From Escherichia coli (lineage in GTDB: Bacteria > Pseudomonadota > Gammaproteobacteria > Enterobacterales > Enterobacteriaceae), in the NCBI RefSeq assembly GCF_046105845.1, contig NZ_CP151004.1: a stretch of DNA of 64,000 nt; one strand, given 5' to 3'. A program made the position numbers and the translations under genes. The stretch's first letter is position 1; each line of letters opens with the position of its first letter. Of this stretch, positions 2,107-18,991 are shown one piece after another. The notes under the pieces are model-generated. The model saw only the letters and a list, made by a program, of their open reading frames with translations, made no database searches and was not told the DNA's origin.

Positions 2107-2223
2107 TCCCTTTTTTGAATTGAAAAGTCCAGGCTGCAAAGTCTGGGCTTTTGTCGTATTAGGGCGCGGTAAAGTTTTGCTGTGCTCGTAAAAAATGGCT
2201 GGCTTTACACAAGGAATGTGGCA

Positions 2224-9070
<6,847 letters not shown>

Positions 9071-10720
9071 GTGAACTGGCGCAGAATCGTCTGGCTATTG
9101 GCGTTGGTTACTCTGCCAACGCTTGCGGAGGAGACGCCGTTACAACTGGTGCTGCGCGGTGCGCAGCACGATCAACTGTATCAGCTGTCGTCATCAGGCG
9201 TGACCAAAGCCTCGACATTACCTGACTCGCTCACCACGCCGTTAGGGAGTTTGTGGAAACTGTATGTTTACGCCTGGCTGGAGGATACCCATCAACCGGA
9301 GCAGCCCTACCAGTGTCGCGGAAACTCCCCGGAAGAGGTTTATTGTTGTCAGGCTGGGGAGAGTATAACGCGCGATACCGCGCTGGTACGTTCCTGTGGG
9401 CTCTATTTTGCGCCGCAGCGGTTGCATATTGGCGCAGATGTGTGGGGGCAATACTGGCAACAGCGTCAGGCACCTGCGTGGTTAGCGTCTCTTACTACGC
9501 TGAAGCCAGAAACCTCGGTAACAGTTAAATCGCTGCTTGATTCATTAGCGACGTTACCTGCGCAAAACAAAGCTCAGGAAGTCTTACTGGATGTGGTGCT
9601 GGACGAGGCGAAAATCGGTGTCGCATCCATGCTCGGTAGTCGGGTACGGGTGAAAACCTGGAGCTGGTTTGCCGATGATAAACAGGAAATCCGTCAGGGT
9701 GGTTTTGCTGGCTGGTTAACCGATGGTACACCGCTGTGGGTTACTGGCAGTGGCACCAGCAAAACGGTACTAACCCGTTATGCGACGGTGCTTAATCGGG
9801 TTTTGCCAGTGCCGACGCAGGTTGACAGTGGGCAATGTGTAGAGGTGGAGCTGTTTGCCCGCTATCCGCTGAAGAAAATCACAGCGGAAAAGAGTACGAC
9901 GGCAGTAAAACCCGGCGTACTTAATGGGCGCTATCGTGTGACGTTTACTAATGGTAACCACATTACGTTTGTCAGCCACGGTGAGACGACCTTACTGAGC
10001 GATAAGGGCAAACTGAAATTGCAGTCGCATCTCGATCGTGAAGAGTACGTTGCCAGAGTTCTGGATCGCGAGGCGAAAAGTACGCCCCCTGAGGCAGCGA
10101 AAGCCATGACCGTGGCGATTCGCACTTTTTTACAGCAAAACGCCAATCGGGAAGGCGATTGCCTGACCATCCCCGACAGCAGCGCCACGCAGCGTGTTTC
10201 TGCTTCGCCAGCGACCACGGGGGCGCGAACGATGACCGCCTGGACGCAGGATCTCATCTATGCAGGCGATCCGGTTCATTATCATGGCAGTCGCGCTACC
10301 GAAGGGACACTTTCCTGGGGGCAAGCCACGGCCCAGGCGGGGCAGGGAGAGCGTTACGACCAGATACTCGCGTTTGCTTATCCCGACAACAGCCTTAGCC
10401 GCTGGGGAGCGCCACGCTCAACCTGCCAGTTATTACCCAAAGCGAAAGCCTGGCTGGCGAAAAAAATGCCGCAGTGGCGGCGTATATTACAAGGCGAGAC
10501 GGGGTACAACGAACCAGACGTGTTTGCGGTCTGTCGTTTAGTCTCAGGTTTCCCCTATACCGATCGGCAGCAGAAACGGCTGTTTATTCGTAACTTCTTT
10601 ACGCTTCAGGATCGGCTCGATTTAACCCATGAGTATCTGCACCTGGCCTTTGATGGTTATCCCACCGGGCTTGATGAGAACTATATCGAAACGCTGACCC
10701 GACAATTATTAATGGACTAA
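9071..10720 (+). CDS. yfaQ: DUF2300-family secreted protein (549 aa) with C-terminal HEYLH motif
   Basis: GTG start immediately after the yfaS stop; signal peptide MNWRRIVWLLALVTLPTLA; length matches YfaQ. Confidence 0.85.
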   Translation: MNWRRIVWLLALVTLPTLAEETPLQLVLRGAQHDQLYQLSSSGVTKASTLPDSLTTPLGSLWKLYVYAWLEDTHQPEQPYQCRGNSPEEVYCCQAGESITRDTALVRSCGLYFAPQRLHIGADVWGQYWQQRQAPAWLASLTTLKPETSVTVKSLLDSLATLPAQNKAQEVLLDVVLDEAKIGVASMLGSRVRVKTWSWFADDKQEIRQGGFAGWLTDGTPLWVTGSGTSKTVLTRYATVLNRVLPVPTQVDSGQCVEVELFARYPLKKITAEKSTTAVKPGVLNGRYRVTFTNGNHITFVSHGETTLLSDKGKLKLQSHLDREEYVARVLDREAKSTPPEAAKAMTVAIRTFLQQNANREGDCLTIPDSSATQRVSASPATTGARTMTAWTQDLIYAGDPVHYHGSRATEGTLSWGQATAQAGQGERYDQILAFAYPDNSLSRWGAPRSTCQLLPKAKAWLAKKMPQWRRILQGETGYNEPDVFAVCRLVSGFPYTDRQQKRLFIRNFFTLQDRLDLTHEYLHLAFDGYPTGLDENYIETLTRQLLMD

Positions 10721-10724
10721 TGCT

Positions 10725-11501
10725 ATGCGAAAGATTTTTCTTCCGTTGTTACTGGTGGCGCTTTCGCCTGTCGCTCACAGTGAAGGTGTGCAGGAAGTCG
10801 AGATTGATGCACCGCTCTCTGGCTGGCATCCGGCAGAGGGCGAAGATGCCAGTTTTTCACAATCGATCAATTACCCGGCGTCGTCCGTCAACATGGCAGA
10901 TGATCAAAATATCTCAGCGCAGATCCGCGGCAAAATAAAGAATTATGCTGCGGCGGGTAAAGTTCAGCAGGGCCGGCTGGTGGTCAACGGTGCCAGTATG
11001 CCGCAGAGAATTGAATCCGATGGTTCATTTGCACGCCCTTATATTTTCACTGAAGGCAGCAACAGCGTGCAGGTCATCAGCCCAGATGGGCAAAGCCGAC
11101 AAAAAATGCAGTTTTACTCGACGCCGGGCGCTGGAGTGATCCGCGCGCGTTTACGGCTGGTTCTCTCCTGGGATACGGACAATACCGACCTCGACCTTCA
11201 CGTTGTTACACCTGATGGCGAACACGCCTGGTACGGTAACACCGTGCTGAAAAACAGTGGTGCACTGGATATGGATGTCACGACGGGGTACGGCCCCGAG
11301 ATTTTCGCTATGCCAGCGCCGATTCACGGACGTTATCAGGTGTATATCAACTACTATGGCGGACGCAGCGAAACGGAATTGACGACCGCCCAACTGACGC
11401 TGATCACCGATGAAGGATCGGTCAATGAGAAACAGGAAACATTTATTGTACCGATGCGTAATGCTGGCGAGCTGACGCTGGTGAAAAGTTTTGACTGGTG
11501 A
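10725..11501 (+). CDS. yfaP: DUF2135-family secreted protein (258 aa)
   Basis: ATG 4 nt after the yfaQ stop; signal peptide MRKIFLPLLLVALSPVAHS; length matches YfaP. Confidence 0.85.
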   Translation: MRKIFLPLLLVALSPVAHSEGVQEVEIDAPLSGWHPAEGEDASFSQSINYPASSVNMADDQNISAQIRGKIKNYAAAGKVQQGRLVVNGASMPQRIESDGSFARPYIFTEGSNSVQVISPDGQSRQKMQFYSTPGAGVIRARLRLVLSWDTDNTDLDLHVVTPDGEHAWYGNTVLKNSGALDMDVTTGYGPEIFAMPAPIHGRYQVYINYYGGRSETELTTAQLTLITDEGSVNEKQETFIVPMRNAGELTLVKSFDW

Positions 11502-11574: not shown

Positions 11575-12759
11575 TTAATTCAACCGTTCAATCACCATCG
11601 CAATTCCCTGGCCGCCACCAATGCACAGTGTTGCCAGCCCCAGCGTTTTATCGCGTGCCTGCATGGCATGTAATAGTGTGACCAGAATACGAGCACCACT
11701 GGCACCGATAGGATGCCCGAGCGCGATGGCCCCGCCGTTGACATTCACTTTCTCAGAATCAAAGCCCAGGGTTTTCCCAACGGCAAGGAACTGTGCAGCA
11801 AATGCTTCATTAGCCTCAATGAGATCAATATCCGCCAGTTGCAGCCCCGCCAGTTGTAACGCTTTTTGCGTGGCAGGTACTGGCCCCATACCCATCAATG
11901 CGGGGGGCACGCCACCGCTGGCATAACTTTTAATGCGAGCCAGGGGGGTAAGGCCTGCTGCCAGCGCCGCAGATTCTTCCATAATCACCAGAGCGGCAGC
12001 ACCGTCGTTAATACCAGACGCGTTCCCGGCGGTGACTGTTCCTGCTTTATCGAAGGCCGGGCGCAATGCGCCTAACGCTTCAGTCGTAGAATCCGCTTTC
12101 GGGAATTCGTCTTGACTGAAGACGAAGGTTTTCTTCCGAGTGACAACATTTACCGGGACGATTTCGGCTGTAAAAGCACCGGACTCAATTGCGGCTGCCG
12201 CTTTACGCTGTGAATGTAGCGCCAGTTCATCCTGCATTTCTCGGGTAATTCCGTACTCTTTGGCCACGTTCTCGGCGGTAATCCCCATATGATAACCATG
12301 GGTGGCGCACATCAGACCATCGCGCAGGATTACGTCATAAACCTGTCCGTCTCCAAGACGATAACCAGAGCGTGCTTTTGCATCGAGTAAGTAGGGCGCT
12401 AAACTCATATTTTCCATACCCCCCGCCACAATGCTTTGCGCCTGACCTGCCTGAATTGCCTGGGCGGCAAGCGCCACACTTTTAAGACCCGAACCACACA
12501 CTTTATTGACCGTGAATCCGCACACCGTTTCTGCCAGCCCGCTTTTTAACAGTGCCTGACGTGCCGGATTTTGCCCCAACCCGGCTTGCAACACGTTACC
12601 CATAATCACTTCATCAATGTGTAGTGAATCGATTTTTGCACGTTCAATGGCGGCTTTAATTACTGTCGCCCCCAGGTCGATGGCGCTGGTGGAAGCGAGT
12701 GAACCGTTAAAACTACCGATAGCAGTACGTACCGCACTGACGATGACACAATTTTTCAT
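11575..12759 (-). CDS. atoB: Acetyl-CoA acetyltransferase (thiolase II), 394 aa
   Basis: Translation [17 protein letters not shown]... with thiolase active-site Cys motifs; last gene of atoDAEB. Confidence 0.95.
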
Positions 12760-12789
12760 TTTTTATTCCTTCTGTCTGTAGGGTTGCCG

Positions 12790-14112
12790 TCAGAACAGCG
12801 TTAAACCAATGACGAAAATGACGCCGGAGAAGAGCAGGGCAGTGATGCAATAGCCCATGATGTCGCGGACACCGAGTCCGGCGATTGCCAGTGCTGGCAG
12901 CGCCCAGAATGGTTGTGCCATGTTCATCCATTGCTCGCCGTAGGCGATCGCCATTACCGATTTACCGAGATCAGCGCCCAGCGCCTGGGCTGCGGGTATC
13001 ACGAAAGGTCCCTGAATAACCCAGTGACCGCCGCCAGACGGAACGGCGAAGTTAATCAGTGCAGAACTAAAAAAGGTCATTACCGGGAAGGTGTCTTTGT
13101 TCGCAACATTGATGAAGAATTCGGTAATGAGTCCGCCCAGACCGGAATGCTCCATCATCAGTTGGATCCCCGCGTAGAAGGGGAATTGCACCAGAATACC
13201 GGCAGTACTGCGTGCTGCCGCGCTGATAGCACGCATATAAGCCATTGGCGTTTTATGTAGCAGCAGACCCGCAATCATAAACATCAGGTTGACGGTATTG
13301 ATGGTGATGTTGAAGCCATGTTCGCTGAAGTACATCGCAAGGTAAGCGATACCGAGTGCGCCAATGATCAACGTCAGAATGCGGCTCTCTTCCAGTCGCT
13401 CGGATGGTGGGGCATCTTTCGGTAGCTGCTTTTGAAAATCAGCCTCTTCCATGAGTAGTTTCGGATCGATACTCACCACGTCAGACGGTTTTGGCATCAT
13501 CATGCGGGTGATAAATGGCATCACCACAATCAACGCCACAGTGATGAAAATGTTAAAACCACTGAACAGAGTATCGCCCACCGGGATCAGCCCGGCGATA
13601 TGCTCAACCGGGTTGCCCGGTGTTGCAGCCAACAGAGGCATTGAGCCAGAGAAACCGCCACCCCAGGTGAGAAAACCAATGTAGGCGCAGGCAATGAGCA
13701 ACGGATAATCAGAACCGGGTACTCGGCGGGCGACTTCACGGGCAAACATTGCGCCGACAACCAAACCAAATCCCCAGTTGATGACACAAGCGACTGAACC
13801 GAAGAAAGTAACCAGCATGACGCCCTGTACGGGCGTCTTTGCGGCGGAGGCGGCAGTACGCAGCAAACTTTTTACCGGAGCAGAGCTGGCAAGGGCATGA
13901 CCGGTAACGATGATAAGCGCCATCTGCATACCAAACGCCAGCAAGTTCCAGAAACCGTCACCCCACATTTTCACCATGCTGATCGGCGTTTGTGGTGTTA
14001 ACCAAAGCGCGATCACGAAAGTTAGCAATGTCAGCAACATGGCAAAGATCAGTGGATCGGGAAGCCACCGGCTGACAAAACGCGTCATAAAACGCGATAT
14101 GCGACCAATCAT
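12790..14112 (-). CDS. atoE: Short-chain fatty acid transporter, 440 aa
   Basis: Polytopic membrane protein ORF between atoA and atoB; length matches AtoE. Confidence 0.9.
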   Translation of the reverse strand: MIGRISRFMTRFVSRWLPDPLIFAMLLTLLTFVIALWLTPQTPISMVKMWGDGFWNLLAFGMQMALIIVTGHALASSAPVKSLLRTAASAAKTPVQGVMLVTFFGSVACVINWGFGLVVGAMFAREVARRVPGSDYPLLIACAYIGFLTWGGGFSGSMPLLAATPGNPVEHIAGLIPVGDTLFSGFNIFITVALIVVMPFITRMMMPKPSDVVSIDPKLLMEEADFQKQLPKDAPPSERLEESRILTLIIGALGIAYLAMYFSEHGFNITINTVNLMFMIAGLLLHKTPMAYMRAISAAARSTAGILVQFPFYAGIQLMMEHSGLGGLITEFFINVANKDTFPVMTFFSSALINFAVPSGGGHWVIQGPFVIPAAQALGADLGKSVMAIAYGEQWMNMAQPFWALPALAIAGLGVRDIMGYCITALLFSGVIFVIGLTLF

Positions 14113-14759
14113 AAATCACCCCGTTGCGTATTCAGATCGGCGGCAACTTCAAACCGAGCTTCTGTTTTGGCACACACGGTGGCTAAATCACACCCGTCGG
14201 CAATTTCGGTGAGCCACATTTTGCCGTCAATAAAACGAAAGACAGCCAGTTCAGTAACCAGCATATGCACCGCATGTTGCGCAGTGAGTGGCATGGTGCA
14301 GCGGCGCAAAATTTTTGCTGAACCATCTTTGGCACAATGTTCCATGGCGATGATCACTTTGCGCGACCCGGTCACCAGATCCATCGCGCCACCCATACCG
14401 GGCACCATTTTCCCAGGCACTACCCAGTTCGCGAGGTTTGCTTCTTCGTCTACTTGCAAACCGCCGAGCACGCAGGCATCAATATGACCGCCGCGGATTA
14501 GCGCAAATGACATGGCGCTATCAAACATGGCTGCACCGGGTAAAACACCGCACGGTTGTCCGCCAGCGTTCACCAGATCTGGATGCGCTGTCGTGACCGG
14601 GCCTAAACCGAGGAAGCCGTTTTCCGATTGCAGAGTGATATGAATACCCTCCGGTAAAAAATTGGCGACCATTGTGGGTAAACCGATCCCTAAGTTAACG
14701 ATGTCACCATCACGAAGCTCTTGCGCCACACGGCGCGCAATACGTTGTTTCGCATCCAT
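14109..14759 (-). CDS. atoA: Acetate CoA-transferase beta subunit, 216 aa
   Basis: Translation [15 protein letters not shown]...; 4-nt overlap with atoE. Confidence 0.93.
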   Translation of the reverse strand: MDAKQRIARRVAQELRDGDIVNLGIGLPTMVANFLPEGIHITLQSENGFLGLGPVTTAHPDLVNAGGQPCGVLPGAAMFDSAMSFALIRGGHIDACVLGGLQVDEEANLANWVVPGKMVPGMGGAMDLVTGSRKVIIAMEHCAKDGSAKILRRCTMPLTAQHAVHMLVTELAVFRFIDGKMWLTEIADGCDLATVCAKTEARFEVAADLNTQRGDL

Positions 14760-15421
14760 TATTTGCTCTCCTGTGAAACGATGATGTGGTCGATAACGGC
14801 ACCAGGGGTGACAATATGGTCAGGTTGCAGCTCGCCGGTTTCGACCAGTTCATCTGGCTCTACCAGCGTGATATCAGCCGCAAGGGCTATCAGGGGGTTA
14901 AAGTTGCGGGCGCTAAGTTGATAGGTCAGGTTGCCAAGTGTGTCGCAACGATGAGCGCGAATTAGCGCCAGGTCGGCGCGCAGTGGGCGTTCGAGCAGCC
15001 AGGTTTTACCGTCGAGTGTCAGTGTCTGTTTGCCTTCCTCTACGACGGTGCCGACACCCGTTGGGGTGAGAAAACCACCAAGTCCAGCTCCACCACAGCG
15101 AATTTGCTCGATTAGCGTACCTTGCGGCACCAGAACGACGTCCATCTCACCAGATATCATGCGCCGACCTGTTTCCGGGTTGGTGCCGATATGTGAAGCA
15201 ATCACTTTGCGGACTCGACCATTGACGATGAGCGGACCGATGCCAGTATCAACAAACGCGGTATCATTGGCTATCAATGTCAGGTCGCGAACACCAGATT
15301 CCAGTAATGCTTCAACCAGGCGGGATGGAGTGCCAATCCCCATAAATCCGCCCACCATGATGGTCATGCTGTCACGAAAGAAGCCGGTGGCGTCTTGTAA
15401 TGTCATCAATTTTGTTTTCAT
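14759..15421 (-). CDS. atoD: Acetate CoA-transferase alpha subunit, 220 aa
   Basis: Translation [15 protein letters not shown]...; first gene of the operon. Confidence 0.93.
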
Positions 15422-15464
15422 TTTTTATCCCTCTTGCATACACCGTTGTGGGTACAGTCAGGGA

Positions 15465-15484
15465 ATAGCAAGGGGAGTGCCAGA
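15465..15484 (-). promoter_or_regulatory. Sigma54 (-24/-12) promoter of atoDAEB
   Basis: Minus strand reads TGGCAC-tcccc-TTGCT (plus-strand gtgcca 15477-15482, agcaa 15467-15471), about 45 bp upstream of the atoD start. Confidence 0.75.
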
Positions 15485-15565
15485 ATGAGATTATTGGATT
15501 TAGTTATTTAACTAATTGAATAGAAAAGGATAAATTGGATGGGGATTTATAAGGAGAATGAGCGG

Positions 15566-15605
15566 CTATGCAGAAAATTGCGCACTGTGCAAATTTCTGC
15601 ATAGC
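15566..15605. promoter_or_regulatory. AtoC upstream activating sequence (40-bp imperfect palindrome)
   Basis: gctatgcagaaaattgcgcac / tgtgcaaatttctgcatagc inverted repeat about 100 bp upstream of the sigma54 promoter. Confidence 0.7.
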
Positions 15606-15616
15606 AAGTTTTGGCG

Positions 15617-17002
15617 TTATACATCCGCCGGATCGATACCGTATTCCTGGAGTTTATACATCAATGCACGGCGACTGATGCCCAGCATTAAAGCAGTGCG
15701 GGTTCGGTTTCCTTCTTGTTGTTCCAGCACTTCCATAATGATGCGTTTTTCGACGCGTTTAATTTCCTCTTTTAAATTACGCTCACCGACAGGGGATGTT
15801 TTTACCTCGCCAGCATTACAGACTGGCTGACGAATCTGCGGCGGAAGATCCTCAGAAAAAATGATCGGGCCTGAGTTCATCACGACGGCGCGTTCAATAA
15901 CGTTGGAAAGCTCTCGAATATTTCCCGGCCATGACCAGGCGGTAAGCAGTGACATTGCCATCGGATCGATGTCGATAATATCGCGCTGATTCTCACTACT
16001 GAATTTTTGCAAAAAGTGATTAGCTAACAGGGAAATATCTTCCCGGCGATCGCGCAGAGGCGGCAGTATTAAATGAATAACGTTAAGGCGATAAAAGAGA
16101 TCTTCACGGAAGGTGCCTTCTTTTACCATTGCCTGCAAGTCACGGTTGGTGGCAGCAATGATGCGGATATCAACTTTTATGGTCTGATGGCCGCCAATCC
16201 GTTCAAATTCCCGTTCCTGCAGAATGCGTAGTAATTTGGCTTGCAGTACGAGCGGCATTTCGCCAATTTCGTCGAGGAGCAGAGTACCTTCGTTGGCACG
16301 TTCAAATAATCCCTGACGCAAGGTTTGTGCACCAGTAAATGCACCTTTTTCATGACCAAACAGTTCACTTTCGAGCAACGATTCCGGCAGCGCCGCGCAG
16401 TTGACTTTAATGAACGGCCCCTTTGCCCGCCGCGAATTGTAGTGAATCGCTCTGGCAATCAACTCTTTCCCGGTGCCGCTTTCACCGCTAATCAAGACGC
16501 TGGCCTGAGAAAGGGCAATTTTGGCGGTGTCTTTGCAGATGTCCATCATCGCCGGGCTGTTGGTGAGAATGTGCCCCCATTGCCAGCTGGTGCTCAGTGC
16601 CTGGTGCAGATGACGGATCTCTTTTTTCATTGACTGGAGTTGTAAAGCGCGCTGAACGATTAAATTCAACTCATCGAGATCAAACGGTTTGATAACATAG
16701 TCGAAGGCTCCGCAGCGTAGCGCTTCGACGGCGGTTTCCACTTCAGCATAGGCCGTCATCAGAATAACGGGTGTCCGGGTCTCATTACTGCGCATCTCCT
16801 TTAGTGCCTTGATGCCGTCCATCTCTGGCATGCGGATATCCATCAACACCACGTCAGGGTGAATATCGACAAACAGGTGTAATGCTGTGCGTCCGTTGTT
16901 CGCACAATGTGTTTCGAATCCTTGTAGTGCAAAAGCGGTGCTCAGCATACGGCGAACATTATCTTCATCATCCACAATAAGGATGCGATTAATAGCAGTC
17001 AT
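15617..17002 (-). CDS. atoC: Sigma54-dependent response regulator AtoC (NtrC family), 461 aa
   Basis: Receiver domain, AAA+ Walker A GESGTGKE, GAFTGA sigma54-contact motif, C-terminal HTH. Confidence 0.95.
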   Translation of the reverse strand: MTAINRILIVDDEDNVRRMLSTAFALQGFETHCANNGRTALHLFVDIHPDVVLMDIRMPEMDGIKALKEMRSNETRTPVILMTAYAEVETAVEALRCGAFDYVIKPFDLDELNLIVQRALQLQSMKKEIRHLHQALSTSWQWGHILTNSPAMMDICKDTAKIALSQASVLISGESGTGKELIARAIHYNSRRAKGPFIKVNCAALPESLLESELFGHEKGAFTGAQTLRQGLFERANEGTLLLDEIGEMPLVLQAKLLRILQEREFERIGGHQTIKVDIRIIAATNRDLQAMVKEGTFREDLFYRLNVIHLILPPLRDRREDISLLANHFLQKFSSENQRDIIDIDPMAMSLLTAWSWPGNIRELSNVIERAVVMNSGPIIFSEDLPPQIRQPVCNAGEVKTSPVGERNLKEEIKRVEKRIIMEVLEQQEGNRTRTALMLGISRRALMYKLQEYGIDPADV

Positions 17003-18825
17003 ACAGTCTGATTTCCCTGCGGGTTGATCGGTAAAATAAGCGTGAAGGTTGCGCCGTAGCCCGGCAAACTGGCGACGCGAATATCACCCTGATGGGCATT
17101 AATGATGCGTTGACTTAACGCCAGACCAAGCCCGGTTCCTGAGGCTTTGGTGGTGAAAAAGGGATCGAAGATCTTTTTTTGCAGCGAGAGATCAATGCCA
17201 CAGCCGTTGTCCTCTATCGAAATGGCCTGTTGTGAGTCGCTGTATTGCCAGGTTTGAATGCGAATTTTCCCTCGTGCGCTGATAGCCTGGACGGCATTGA
17301 TCAGGATATTCAGTAGTACCTGTTTGAGCAGTTCACGATCGGCGTTAATCGGGTTTAATTCATTATCCAGTTCGCTTATGAAGTCGACCCGCGCTTGTAC
17401 GCCAGCGGTTTGTACCAGTACCAGAGTTTCTTCAACCAATGCATTGAGGCTGACTTGTTGCCATTGACTGTGGCGTGGACGTGAAAATTCGAGCAATTGC
17501 TGAATAACTTTGTTAATTGAATCGATTTCTTTGAGTACTACGGACAGATATTCCTGATGTATTGGGTCACCGGTTTGTTGGCGCAAGATCTGTACATAAC
17601 CACGAATAGCCGTTAGCGGATTACGTACTTCATGCGCGACGCCAGCCATCAGCTCACCCAGTGTGGCGAGGCGTTCTGCTTGCGCCATGCGGCGCTGGGT
17701 TTCTTTGCGGGCAGTTAAATCAGAGAAAATCACCAAAGCACCTATCATTTCACCATGCGTGTTATGAATACGACTGGTAGTGACACTGAGTTCAATGGTG
17801 CGGTCACGGCCTGGAAAACTGATCTCCAGCGCTACATGTTCGGTGCCATGTTCCAGCGTATCCAGTACTGGACTGTAGAACTGAGTATGGTCGAACAACA
17901 TGGAGTAAGGCTGCCCTACCAGTTCATGACGTTGATAGCCAGTGATGACTTCTGCTGCCGGGTTCATGGTGGTTACATCACCCTGGCGGTCAATGGCAAT
18001 GACGCCATCGGCAGCGTTTTCAATAATCAGATCGTTGAGTGTCCGCGTTTCACGCAGTGCCTGGGCGAGGTTGTTAACACTCTGACTGATTTGCCCCATT
18101 TCACCGGGCAATTGTGGTAATCGAGTGGGAATATTTTGCGCCAGAGTCGAGAGGCCATCGGTGATGATATCAATATTGGCGCTCAGGCGACGGGAGAAAA
18201 GGACAATCAACAGCAGGCTTATCAGCAAACCGGCGGTGAGCACAATGATAATCCTCACATCCATTCTCCAGGCCTGGCGGCGAATATCTTCGGTTAATTC
18301 ATTGGCCCAGATATAGCCGAGGATTTCACCATTACGCTCAATGGGGAGCATTGAATTCAAAATATCGCCGCGCACCTGCCTGCCTGAATAAACCAAAGGG
18401 GTATTTGTACGCATGACTTCGCGACCAGGGTGATCTGCGGCAATGGTAACGCCGACATTATTCTGATATAGCGCTGAAGGCGCGTAGGTGATTATCGCAT
18501 CCAGCGTTTTGTTGTAATAACCAGCGCCGATGCCAGGGAAGGCGTGAGTGATATTTTCGGTAATGGGGGCAAGTTCTGCATTTAATGCGCGGATACGCTC
18601 CTCACGTGGTAAGTCGATGTAGAGATCATAGCGATCGCCTAGTGCCTGATTAAGCAGGTTGACCACGGCAGAAAGTTTTTTCTCTTTTTCAGATAAGACT
18701 GCTGAACGTCCTTCCGTTTCTACGATATAACCAATAGTAAGCGTTGGGACAATGACCATCAGGATTGCCATCAGGATCATTTGATTGCGTAAGCGGCGTG
18801 GATAAATCCACTTCATATAATGCAT
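16999..18825 (-). CDS. atoS: Sensor histidine kinase AtoS, 608 aa
   Basis: ORF track 16999..18837 (GTG start); start set at ATG 18825 (MHYMKWIYPRR...); H-box AHEVRNPL; overlaps atoC by 4 nt. Confidence 0.9.
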   Translation of the reverse strand: MHYMKWIYPRRLRNQMILMAILMVIVPTLTIGYIVETEGRSAVLSEKEKKLSAVVNLLNQALGDRYDLYIDLPREERIRALNAELAPITENITHAFPGIGAGYYNKTLDAIITYAPSALYQNNVGVTIAADHPGREVMRTNTPLVYSGRQVRGDILNSMLPIERNGEILGYIWANELTEDIRRQAWRMDVRIIIVLTAGLLISLLLIVLFSRRLSANIDIITDGLSTLAQNIPTRLPQLPGEMGQISQSVNNLAQALRETRTLNDLIIENAADGVIAIDRQGDVTTMNPAAEVITGYQRHELVGQPYSMLFDHTQFYSPVLDTLEHGTEHVALEISFPGRDRTIELSVTTSRIHNTHGEMIGALVIFSDLTARKETQRRMAQAERLATLGELMAGVAHEVRNPLTAIRGYVQILRQQTGDPIHQEYLSVVLKEIDSINKVIQQLLEFSRPRHSQWQQVSLNALVEETLVLVQTAGVQARVDFISELDNELNPINADRELLKQVLLNILINAVQAISARGKIRIQTWQYSDSQQAISIEDNGCGIDLSLQKKIFDPFFTTKASGTGLGLALSQRIINAHQGDIRVASLPGYGATFTLILPINPQGNQTV

Positions 18826-18991
18826 GCTGAAATCCACTAGTCTTGTCCGGTATATGACGATTATCAGAGGTTAAGGTGATGATTTCTCGGCGGTGTATCA
18901 TATTCCAGAGAAGAGAGAACATTGCGGTAACACGCTTTTACCGCTACCTTAACCACACTCCATCGGTCACCTGAGGCGGAGCTTCGCCCCT

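Follow-up and report, generated by a model that had tools for sequence, protein, structure and literature searches.

Results

The yfaQ gene and its HExxH motif

The stretch of Escherichia coli DNA analysed here (hereafter the window) comprises 64,000 nucleotides of contig NZ_CP151004.1 (RefSeq assembly GCF_046105845.1) and carries yfaQ, the orthologue of Pseudomonas aeruginosa magE, whose product bears an HExxH motif close to its C-terminus. Positions are those of the window, and all features lie on the plus strand unless stated otherwise. In the list of open reading frames and their translations, yfaQ runs from 9071 to 10720 and encodes, from a GTG start, 549 residues followed by a stop codon; RefSeq gives the identical start and stop and names the product 'YfaQ family protein'. 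The Pfam model DUF2300 (PF10062) matched the protein with E = 2e-90 and 299.9 bits (cut-off, 25), which places YfaQ in that family, and the gene was found in 5381 of 5426 complete E. coli genomes. The K-12 copy is intact, and its product differs from the window protein by seven substitutions, none of which falls in a conserved motif.

The motif, H520-E521-Y522-L523-H524, is encoded by the codons CAT GAG TAT CTG CAC at 10628-10642 and is identical in K-12. It stands 29 residues from the C-terminus of YfaQ, within LDLTHEYLHLAFDGYP, and the coordinates, codons and residue numbers that a first-pass annotation had assigned to it all agreed with the window sequence and the reading frame. Given the composition of YfaQ (10 His and 27 Glu in 549 residues), 0.009 HExxH motifs are expected by chance per YfaQ sequence; a single occurrence is mildly unusual for this protein and unremarkable on the scale of a proteome.

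Conservation of the motif among YfaQ and MagE homologues

A homologue search of 1.84 billion cluster representatives yielded 294 relatives, 129 of them at E <= 1e-30. Among the best 150 of the 294, HE[YFW]xH was present at the equivalent site in every sequence that reached the C-terminus, and the sequences without the motif were truncated or frameshifted fragments. Conservation was measured in two alignments, one of the C-terminal domain from 88 representative homologues (104 columns; 23-56% identical to E. coli over the domain) and one of 62 full-length proteins (549 columns; 28-49% identical to E. coli). In the domain alignment H520, E521 and H524 were each retained in 88 of 88 sequences at a mean column identity of 39%, and with C488 they make up the only four invariant columns of the 104. 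The same three residues were found in 62 of 62 full-length proteins, where 21 of 549 columns are invariant and the mean column identity is 26%. The probability that three columns named beforehand would all be invariant by chance is about 2e-5 to 5e-5. Sequences bearing the motif include P. aeruginosa MagE and those of P. fluorescens, Acinetobacter and Tahibacter. Position 522 is aromatic throughout (Tyr in 71, Phe in 11 and Trp in 6 of the 88), and downstream of the motif Pro is found at position 531 in 85 sequences and Ala at position 543 in 87. Chance HExxH matches at other places were seen in three homologues (P0005, P0021 and P0055). The motif stands above chance because its two His residues and its Glu are invariant, not because of its rarity alone; the earlier caution that a five-residue motif can easily occur by chance holds for a proteome as a whole, but a chance origin is contradicted for YfaQ.

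Predicted fold of the C-terminal domain

With the 62-sequence alignment as input, AlphaFold2 modelled YfaQ at a mean predicted local distance difference test (pLDDT) of 93.7 and a predicted template modelling score of 0.89; the C-terminal 104 residues modelled alone gave a pLDDT of 94.6. Residues 448-549 (10412-10717) form a minimal zincin-like domain in this model, built from a helix at 456-473, strands at 486-489, 496-498 and 503-506, a helix at 512-526, and helices at 531-534 and 536-548. H520, E521 and H524 lie within helix 512-526, the predicted active-site helix, at pLDDT values of 97-99, and the two His residues are separated by one helical turn on the same face, a feature of all zincins. 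As in known zincins, which the domain resembles overall, this helix is preceded by a mixed beta-sheet (three strands) and a backing helix; a helix hairpin comes after it, a short turn, xxH(Y)PxG, leading from the motif-bearing helix to helices 531-534 and 536-548.

The structural neighbours of the domain were almost all zincin metallopeptidases, the listed figures being 7.1 for ERAP1, 7.0 for Spartan, 6.9 for an M32 carboxypeptidase, 6.8 for proabylysin, 6.7 for projannalysin, 6.2 each for Wss1, selecase and ArdC, 5.5 for BlaR1, 5.2 for BepA and 4.9 for an M48 peptidase. Foldseek placed selecase at the top (E = 0.016, probability 0.92), followed by IrrE/PprI, proabylysin, Wss1, BlaR1 and BepA, and no match of the domain in that search reached 1e-3. 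Searches by sequence pointed the same way at sub-significant levels. The best hit of the domain profile among PDB sequences was again selecase (E = 0.26), with the HExxH and the preceding strand aligned, and when the 88 members were scanned singly against Pfam the recurrent sub-threshold matches were to zincin families only (SprT-like in 15 of 88, Peptidase_M78 in 11, DUF6782 in 3, eCIS_core in 2 and Tox-MPTase2 in 1). The YfaQ sequence searched directly against the PDB gave no match, and no structure of YfaQ is deposited there. The domain profile, run against a set of 5.8 billion proteins, retrieved DUF2300 fragments only, with no other architecture or named family, and a search for selecase homologues from a 51-residue fragment gave no candidates. 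The first-pass annotation had named two checks, conservation among orthologues and placement in a predicted structure; the conservation described above and the predicted placement of the motif on helix 512-526, in a domain whose neighbours are almost all zincins, both support its reading of HExxH as a possible zinc-binding signature of a metallopeptidase.

We also considered assignment to the metzincins (HExxHxxGxxH) and rejected it. Three residues beyond the second His, 69 of the 88 sequences have Phe and 16 have Leu, in place of the expected Gly; a single helix follows the motif, and there is neither a conserved Met nor a Met-turn.

The candidate metal site

A third zinc ligand downstream of the motif had been suggested as something to look for, and candidates are present. 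The first lies six residues after the second His, at position 530 (codon 10658-10660), where the family consensus is His (77 of 88) and E. coli is one of five sequences with Tyr; Thr is found in three, and Arg, Gln and Ala in one each. The others belong to D535-E536-N-Y-I-E540 (10673-10690), a [D/N]-E-x-x-x-[E/D] sequence at the start of the last helix (536-548), which could supply both the third ligand and an acid that orients a His. In the 88 sequences position 535 is Asp in 66 and Asn in 17, position 536 is Glu in 85, Asp in two and Gln in one, and position 540 is Glu in 82 and Asp in six, so that an acidic residue is present at 540 throughout; E536 and E540 are both kept in the Tyr530 clade. 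An HExxH...ExxxD arrangement is exemplified by thermolysin, in which the second element is N165-E166-A-I-S-D170. It is also seen in the gluzincin MecR1 (HE205LSH and E245KVCD), whereas in the minigluzincins the third ligand is a His (PMC6925264). We favour E536 as the putative third ligand and E540 as the acid that may orient H520, because these residues are better conserved than His530 and are kept where it has become Tyr. The residue at 530 would then lie beside the metal, and the exchange of His for Tyr is more typical of a transition-state stabiliser than of a ligand.

The SpoIID-like middle domain

Upstream of the zincin-like domain, residues 250-447 (9818-10411; both limits are approximate) form a SpoIID-like, that is, lytic transglycosylase-like, domain. 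The Pfam SpoIID model scored 26.7 bits in E. coli YfaQ against a gathering cut-off of 23 and matched 62 of 62 family members (best E = 1e-9), and the family profile matched the SpoIID structure 4rwr with E = 9e-4. The full-length NCBIfam model SpoIID_LytB scored 18.7, far below its cut-off of 83.3, arguing that the YfaQ domain is a divergent member. The SpoIID signature is found at Y326-VARVLDR-E334 (10046-10072), in which Y326, R329, V330, R333 and E334 are each present in 62 of 62 sequences. E334 (codon 10070-10072) aligns to E101 of Clostridioides difficile SpoIID (5txu numbering), which is the catalytic residue of an enzyme that acts only on glycan stripped of its peptides (PMC6221140).

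The family label cuts across these predicted domains. PF10062 matches two regions of YfaQ, residues 84-205 (9320-9685) and 412-532 (10304-10666), and the K-12 annotation speaks of a 'tandem DUF2300' protein. We rejected a tandem repeat: the two regions are unrelated (hhalign probability, 0.15%), they have different predicted folds, and nothing in the first of them corresponds to the HExxH. The product name looks like an artefact of the model.

The N-terminal beta-lactamase/penicillin-binding-protein-like domain

Residues 22-248 (9134-9814, again with approximate limits) resemble a beta-lactamase or the transpeptidase domain of a penicillin-binding protein (PBP). For the N-terminal region of about 230 residues, Foldseek retrieved class A beta-lactamases and the PBP3 transpeptidase from the PDB (E = 1.7e-6, probability 1.00, about 265 aligned columns). 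The family profile aligned to PBP 7rd0 with E = 0.078, with the SxxK and SxN motifs in register, and Pfam Transpeptidase matched weakly in 4 of 62 members. The SxxK-like element is S60-L-W-K63 (9248-9259), at the N-terminus of helix 59-73, where 'PLGS60LWK63' is aligned to 'PPGSVFK' of a PBP, and S60 and K63 are found in 61 of 61 aligned sequences. S108-C109-G110 (9392-9400) aligns to the PBP SxN element (SCN of 7rd0), S108 and C109 being present in 62 of 62, and K195-T196-W197 (9653-9661), on strand 192-200, is KTG-like, with K195 and T196 in 62 of 62 and Phe, Trp or Tyr at position 197 in 61 of 62. The positions of these residues in the model match those of the fold, namely the N-terminus of the SxxK helix, the SxN loop and the KTG strand. 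Two of the elements are matched only in part, for the Asn of SxN is absent and an aromatic residue replaces the Gly of KTG. The N-terminal domain may make YfaQ an unrecognised penicillin-binding-type protein of E. coli. The first-pass annotation had proposed that YfaQ could be a second hydrolase in its operon; that possibility is supported by the sequence and the model, but the proposal understates the case, as the protein contains three hydrolase-like modules.

Signal peptide and cysteines

A probable Sec signal peptide, with a putative cleavage site, could be read from the sequence at 9071-9130 (MNWRRIVWLLALVTLPTLA / EE), and residues 1-20 have low pLDDT values (55-66) in the AlphaFold2 model. 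The full-length alignment contains six conserved cysteines, C82, C92, C93, C109, C452 and C488. C452 (codon 10424-10426; 62 of 62) is the probable disulfide partner of C488 (codon 10532-10534), which lies on strand 486-489 and is the fourth invariant residue of the C-terminal domain. The signal peptide and the six cysteines argue for a periplasmic, disulfide-bonded protein.

The operon and its published biology

The gene order in the window is gyrA, yfaA, yfaT, yfaS, yfaQ, yfaP and then the ato genes on the other strand. The gene yfaA (2182-3912), annotated also in RefSeq, encodes a MagB-like DUF2138 protein (Pfam E = 7e-288), and yfaT (3882-4532) encodes the orthologue of MagC, a DUF1175 protein that matched the PDB entry 7bk8, 'MagC', with E = 9e-103 and showed a sub-threshold match to NlpC/P60. 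YfaT carries NlpC/P60-like sequence motifs, including GDMIFF...HLMVWMG, though DUF1175 is described in the literature as inactive and peptidoglycan-binding. The next gene, yfaS (4451-9070; RefSeq start, 4556), encodes a type II alpha-2-macroglobulin (A2M), the orthologue of MagD, with the Pfam domains MG2, A2M_BRD, A2M and bMG10. It is an intact long open reading frame in the window and is annotated as a pseudogene in K-12 MG1655. The last gene of the operon, yfaP (10725-11501), likewise annotated in RefSeq, encodes a MagF-like DUF2135 protein (Pfam). The acetoacetate/short-chain fatty acid genes atoB, atoE, atoA, atoD, atoC and atoS occupy 11575-18837 on the minus strand and are convergent to the yfa operon, an arrangement that is usual for E. 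coli and in which we saw nothing odd.

The stop codon of yfaS directly abuts the GTG of yfaQ (AAA TAA GTG, 9068-9073). The order DUF2138, (MagC), A2M, YfaQ, YfaP is retained in the most distant homologues (30-35% identity), where adjoining genes for A2M, YfaQ and YfaP share from a few to about 30 bases. The abutting codons and these overlaps suggest that the operon is translationally coupled.

In P. aeruginosa, deletion of magE changes the amount and the forms of MagD, for which its authors suggested a role of MagE as a chaperone or in signal-peptide processing (PMC5764988). MagC is NlpC/P60-like, binds peptidoglycan and is regarded as inactive (PMC10318531). The mag operon shields P. aeruginosa from VgrG3 and Tae1, peptidoglycan-targeting type VI secretion system (T6SS) effectors, by a mechanism that was left open in 2025 (PMC12663445), and type II A2M operons have been linked to virulence (PMC3735191). 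The literature that we searched contained no link of YfaQ, MagE or DUF2300 to HExxH, to SpoIID or to a PBP-like domain.

Discussion

The results are best explained, in our judgement, by a reading in which HEYLH is the active-site motif of a minimal zincin domain of about 100 residues at the C-terminus of YfaQ/MagE, acting in the periplasm on peptidoglycan; taken as a whole we consider this reading probable. Its parts differ in strength. The motif and its invariance, the predicted zincin fold, the arrangement of domains and the linkage within the operon are results of the analysis; zinc binding, the identity of the ligands, catalysis, location in the cell and substrate are inferences. That a functional zincin-type metal or catalytic site exists at HEYLH is likely, whereas the peptide part of peptidoglycan as the substrate is our preferred but tentative choice. 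This substrate is favoured because the zincin shares its polypeptide with a SpoIID-like domain, and enzymes of the SpoIID type cut only peptide-stripped glycan, because a PBP-like domain is part of the fusion too, and because the operon is tied to peptidoglycan both biochemically, through MagC, and genetically, through the T6SS effectors.

By analogy with the zincins, one could envisage the mechanism as follows. H520 and H524, one turn apart on helix 512-526, would bind Zn2+. The third ligand would be E536, from the first turn of the last helix, which runs antiparallel and is N-capped by D535. E540 would orient H520, and E521, as general base, would activate the water bound to the zinc. His530, or the Tyr found in E. 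coli, would adjoin the metal, either as a further ligand or to stabilise the transition state, and the peptide to be cut would dock against strand 503-506 as one more strand. In the periplasm the zincin would remove or cleave stem peptides, after which the fused SpoIID-like domain could act on the denuded glycan.

The closest minimal counterparts of the domain are the minigluzincins (proabylysin, 4jiu; projannalysin, 4jix; selecase, 4qhf; provisional MEROPS family M95), to which YfaQ has no significant sequence similarity (E = 0.26). The YfaQ His follows the second His of the motif by six residues rather than seven and is not invariant, the last helix bears [D/N]ExxxE, and there is an internal conserved Cys pair; furthermore, the minigluzincins are free-standing archaeal proteins, whereas the YfaQ domain forms the C-terminal end of a secreted bacterial protein with three domains. 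The gluzincins with HExxH...ExxxD (M48 Ste24/HtpX/BepA and M56 BlaR1/MecR1; NExxxD in the thermolysin type) have an arrangement that YfaQ may share, but the His-to-Glu spacing is much shorter in YfaQ (12 residues), the second acid is mostly Glu instead of Asp, membrane segments are absent, and the role of E536 as a ligand is putative. Relative to BlaR1 the two domains stand in the opposite order, with a SpoIID-like domain between them. The SprT-like/WLM proteases (Spartan, Wss1) and the M78 family (ImmA/IrrE) were matched by members of the YfaQ family below Pfam thresholds in every case, and these are cytoplasmic or nuclear regulators and DNA-repair proteases, unlike the predicted periplasmic product of an envelope operon.

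Two other systems offer parallels at the level of architecture. The SpoIID-like domain of YfaQ has the catalytic Glu, as in the SpoIID/SpoIIP pair of sporulating Firmicutes, and peptide cleavage by the neighbouring domain would mirror the division of labour in which SpoIIP takes off the peptides before SpoIID cuts the bared glycan (PMC6221140). SpoIIP, however, is an amidase/endopeptidase of another fold and not an HExxH zincin, and the putative activities of YfaQ would be fused in one polypeptide of the Gram-negative periplasm that has no link to sporulation. In type I A2M systems (YfhM/ECAM with PBP1c), an A2M gene is likewise coupled to that of a cell-wall enzyme with a penicillin-binding-type domain (PMC5764988), and YfaQ would fill the place of PBP1c. 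PBP1c is a bifunctional glycosyltransferase/transpeptidase synthase, whereas YfaQ combines a PBP-like fold with a SpoIID-like domain and a zincin and belongs to an operon of five or six genes.

Several points weigh against a periplasmic zinc peptidase that acts on peptidoglycan. To our knowledge, peptidoglycan peptidases are not usually HExxH zincins. More than one residue could be the third ligand, and His530, the commonest candidate, is replaced by Tyr in E. coli. Among minimal scaffolds the closest, of the M95/proabylysin type, had no detectable activity when it was first solved (PMC3890501), and MagC, which belongs to the same complex, looks like an enzyme but is apparently inactive (PMC10318531). 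MagE of P. aeruginosa was found in cytoplasmic fractions (PMC3735191), which conflicts with a periplasmic location, and it did not co-purify with MagD (PMC3735191, PMC5764988).

Both of these precedents for inactivity bear on the possibility that YfaQ is a pseudo-enzyme, retaining the zincin fold, perhaps with a structural metal, and only binding or scaffolding peptide stems, MagD or other Mag proteins, with no hydrolysis. It would then resemble the inactive, peptidoglycan-binding NlpC/P60 look-alike MagC (DUF1175) encoded in its own operon (PMC10318531) and the minimal zincin scaffolds crystallised without detectable activity (PMC3890501). Replacement of His530 in 11 of the 88 sequences, E. 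coli included, is consistent with such a role, and the bulky aromatic residue in place of Gly in the KTG-like motif of the N-terminal domain hints that some modules are non-canonical. Nevertheless we regard a pseudo-enzyme as improbable, because the invariance of the general-base residue E521 and both His residues, together with the retention of E536 and E540 where His530 is lost, is a pattern typical of selection for catalysis and not for folding; a purely structural metal site would not require the catalytic Glu. That HEYLH is a coincidental five-residue match with no function at all is effectively excluded. HExxH is frequent by chance in any proteome, as the stray matches in three homologues illustrate, but at this site the motif accounts for all but one of the four columns that are invariant in the domain, in 88 of 88 sequences (p about 2e-5), and occupies the equivalent of the zincin active-site helix in the predicted fold.

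The same zincin chemistry could instead be directed at a protein, either in the maturation of YfaS/MagD (for example, from 165 kDa to 100 kDa) or in the cleavage of incoming periplasmic toxins held by the Mag complex. In all lineages examined yfaQ keeps strictly to the side of the A2M gene, with apparent translational coupling between the two; A2Ms are protease-triggered devices, and the nearest structural relatives of the domain (selecase, Wss1/Spartan, IrrE and BlaR1) all cleave proteins. A protein target also fits the effect of the magE deletion on the forms of MagD, and the published account names no protease that produces the 100 kDa form. However, no stable MagD-MagE complex was obtained, and the stability of MagE is independent of MagD (PMC5764988, PMC3735191). 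The effect of the deletion was read as the appearance of extra forms of higher mass and not as a simple loss of cleavage. K-12 has kept yfaQ intact, with its motif unchanged, although its yfaS is a pseudogene, arguing that YfaQ has a role beyond A2M processing, and the PBP-like and SpoIID-like domains to which the zincin is fused speak for the cell wall. We hold a protein target, the main alternative, to be rather unlikely and retain peptidoglycan peptide as the preferred substrate.

A broader reading, which we offer as doubtful, is that YfaQ/MagE forms the enzymatic core of type II A2M envelope defence, as one periplasmic protein with three live sites (the PBP-like serine, the SpoIID-like glutamate and the mini-zincin). 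Such a core would either repair and remodel peptidoglycan damaged by T6SS or host effectors, or it would act as a sensor, in which the PBP-like domain would detect damage to the wall in the manner of BlaR1 and the zincin would then cleave MagD or a trapped effector.

The zincin fold and its chemistry are known, but DUF2300, or 'YfaQ family protein', is not annotated as a zincin, and the literature searched appears to contain no description of this architecture of three modules beside a type II A2M. If the zincin assignment is true, the zincin superfamily would gain a new family, and E. coli possibly a penicillin-binding-type protein that had gone unrecognised. Bacterial type II A2M operons, yfa in E. 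coli and mag in P. aeruginosa, are widespread, and the literature treats MagE as a possibly cytoplasmic helper or chaperone; the zincin, SpoIID and PBP signatures offer a likely enzyme activity that can be tested. The protection that the operon confers may be enzymatic, beyond that of a protease trap only, and if YfaQ/MagE were indeed the enzymatic core, it would account for the protection that an A2M operon lacking the thioester gives against peptidoglycan-targeting toxins.

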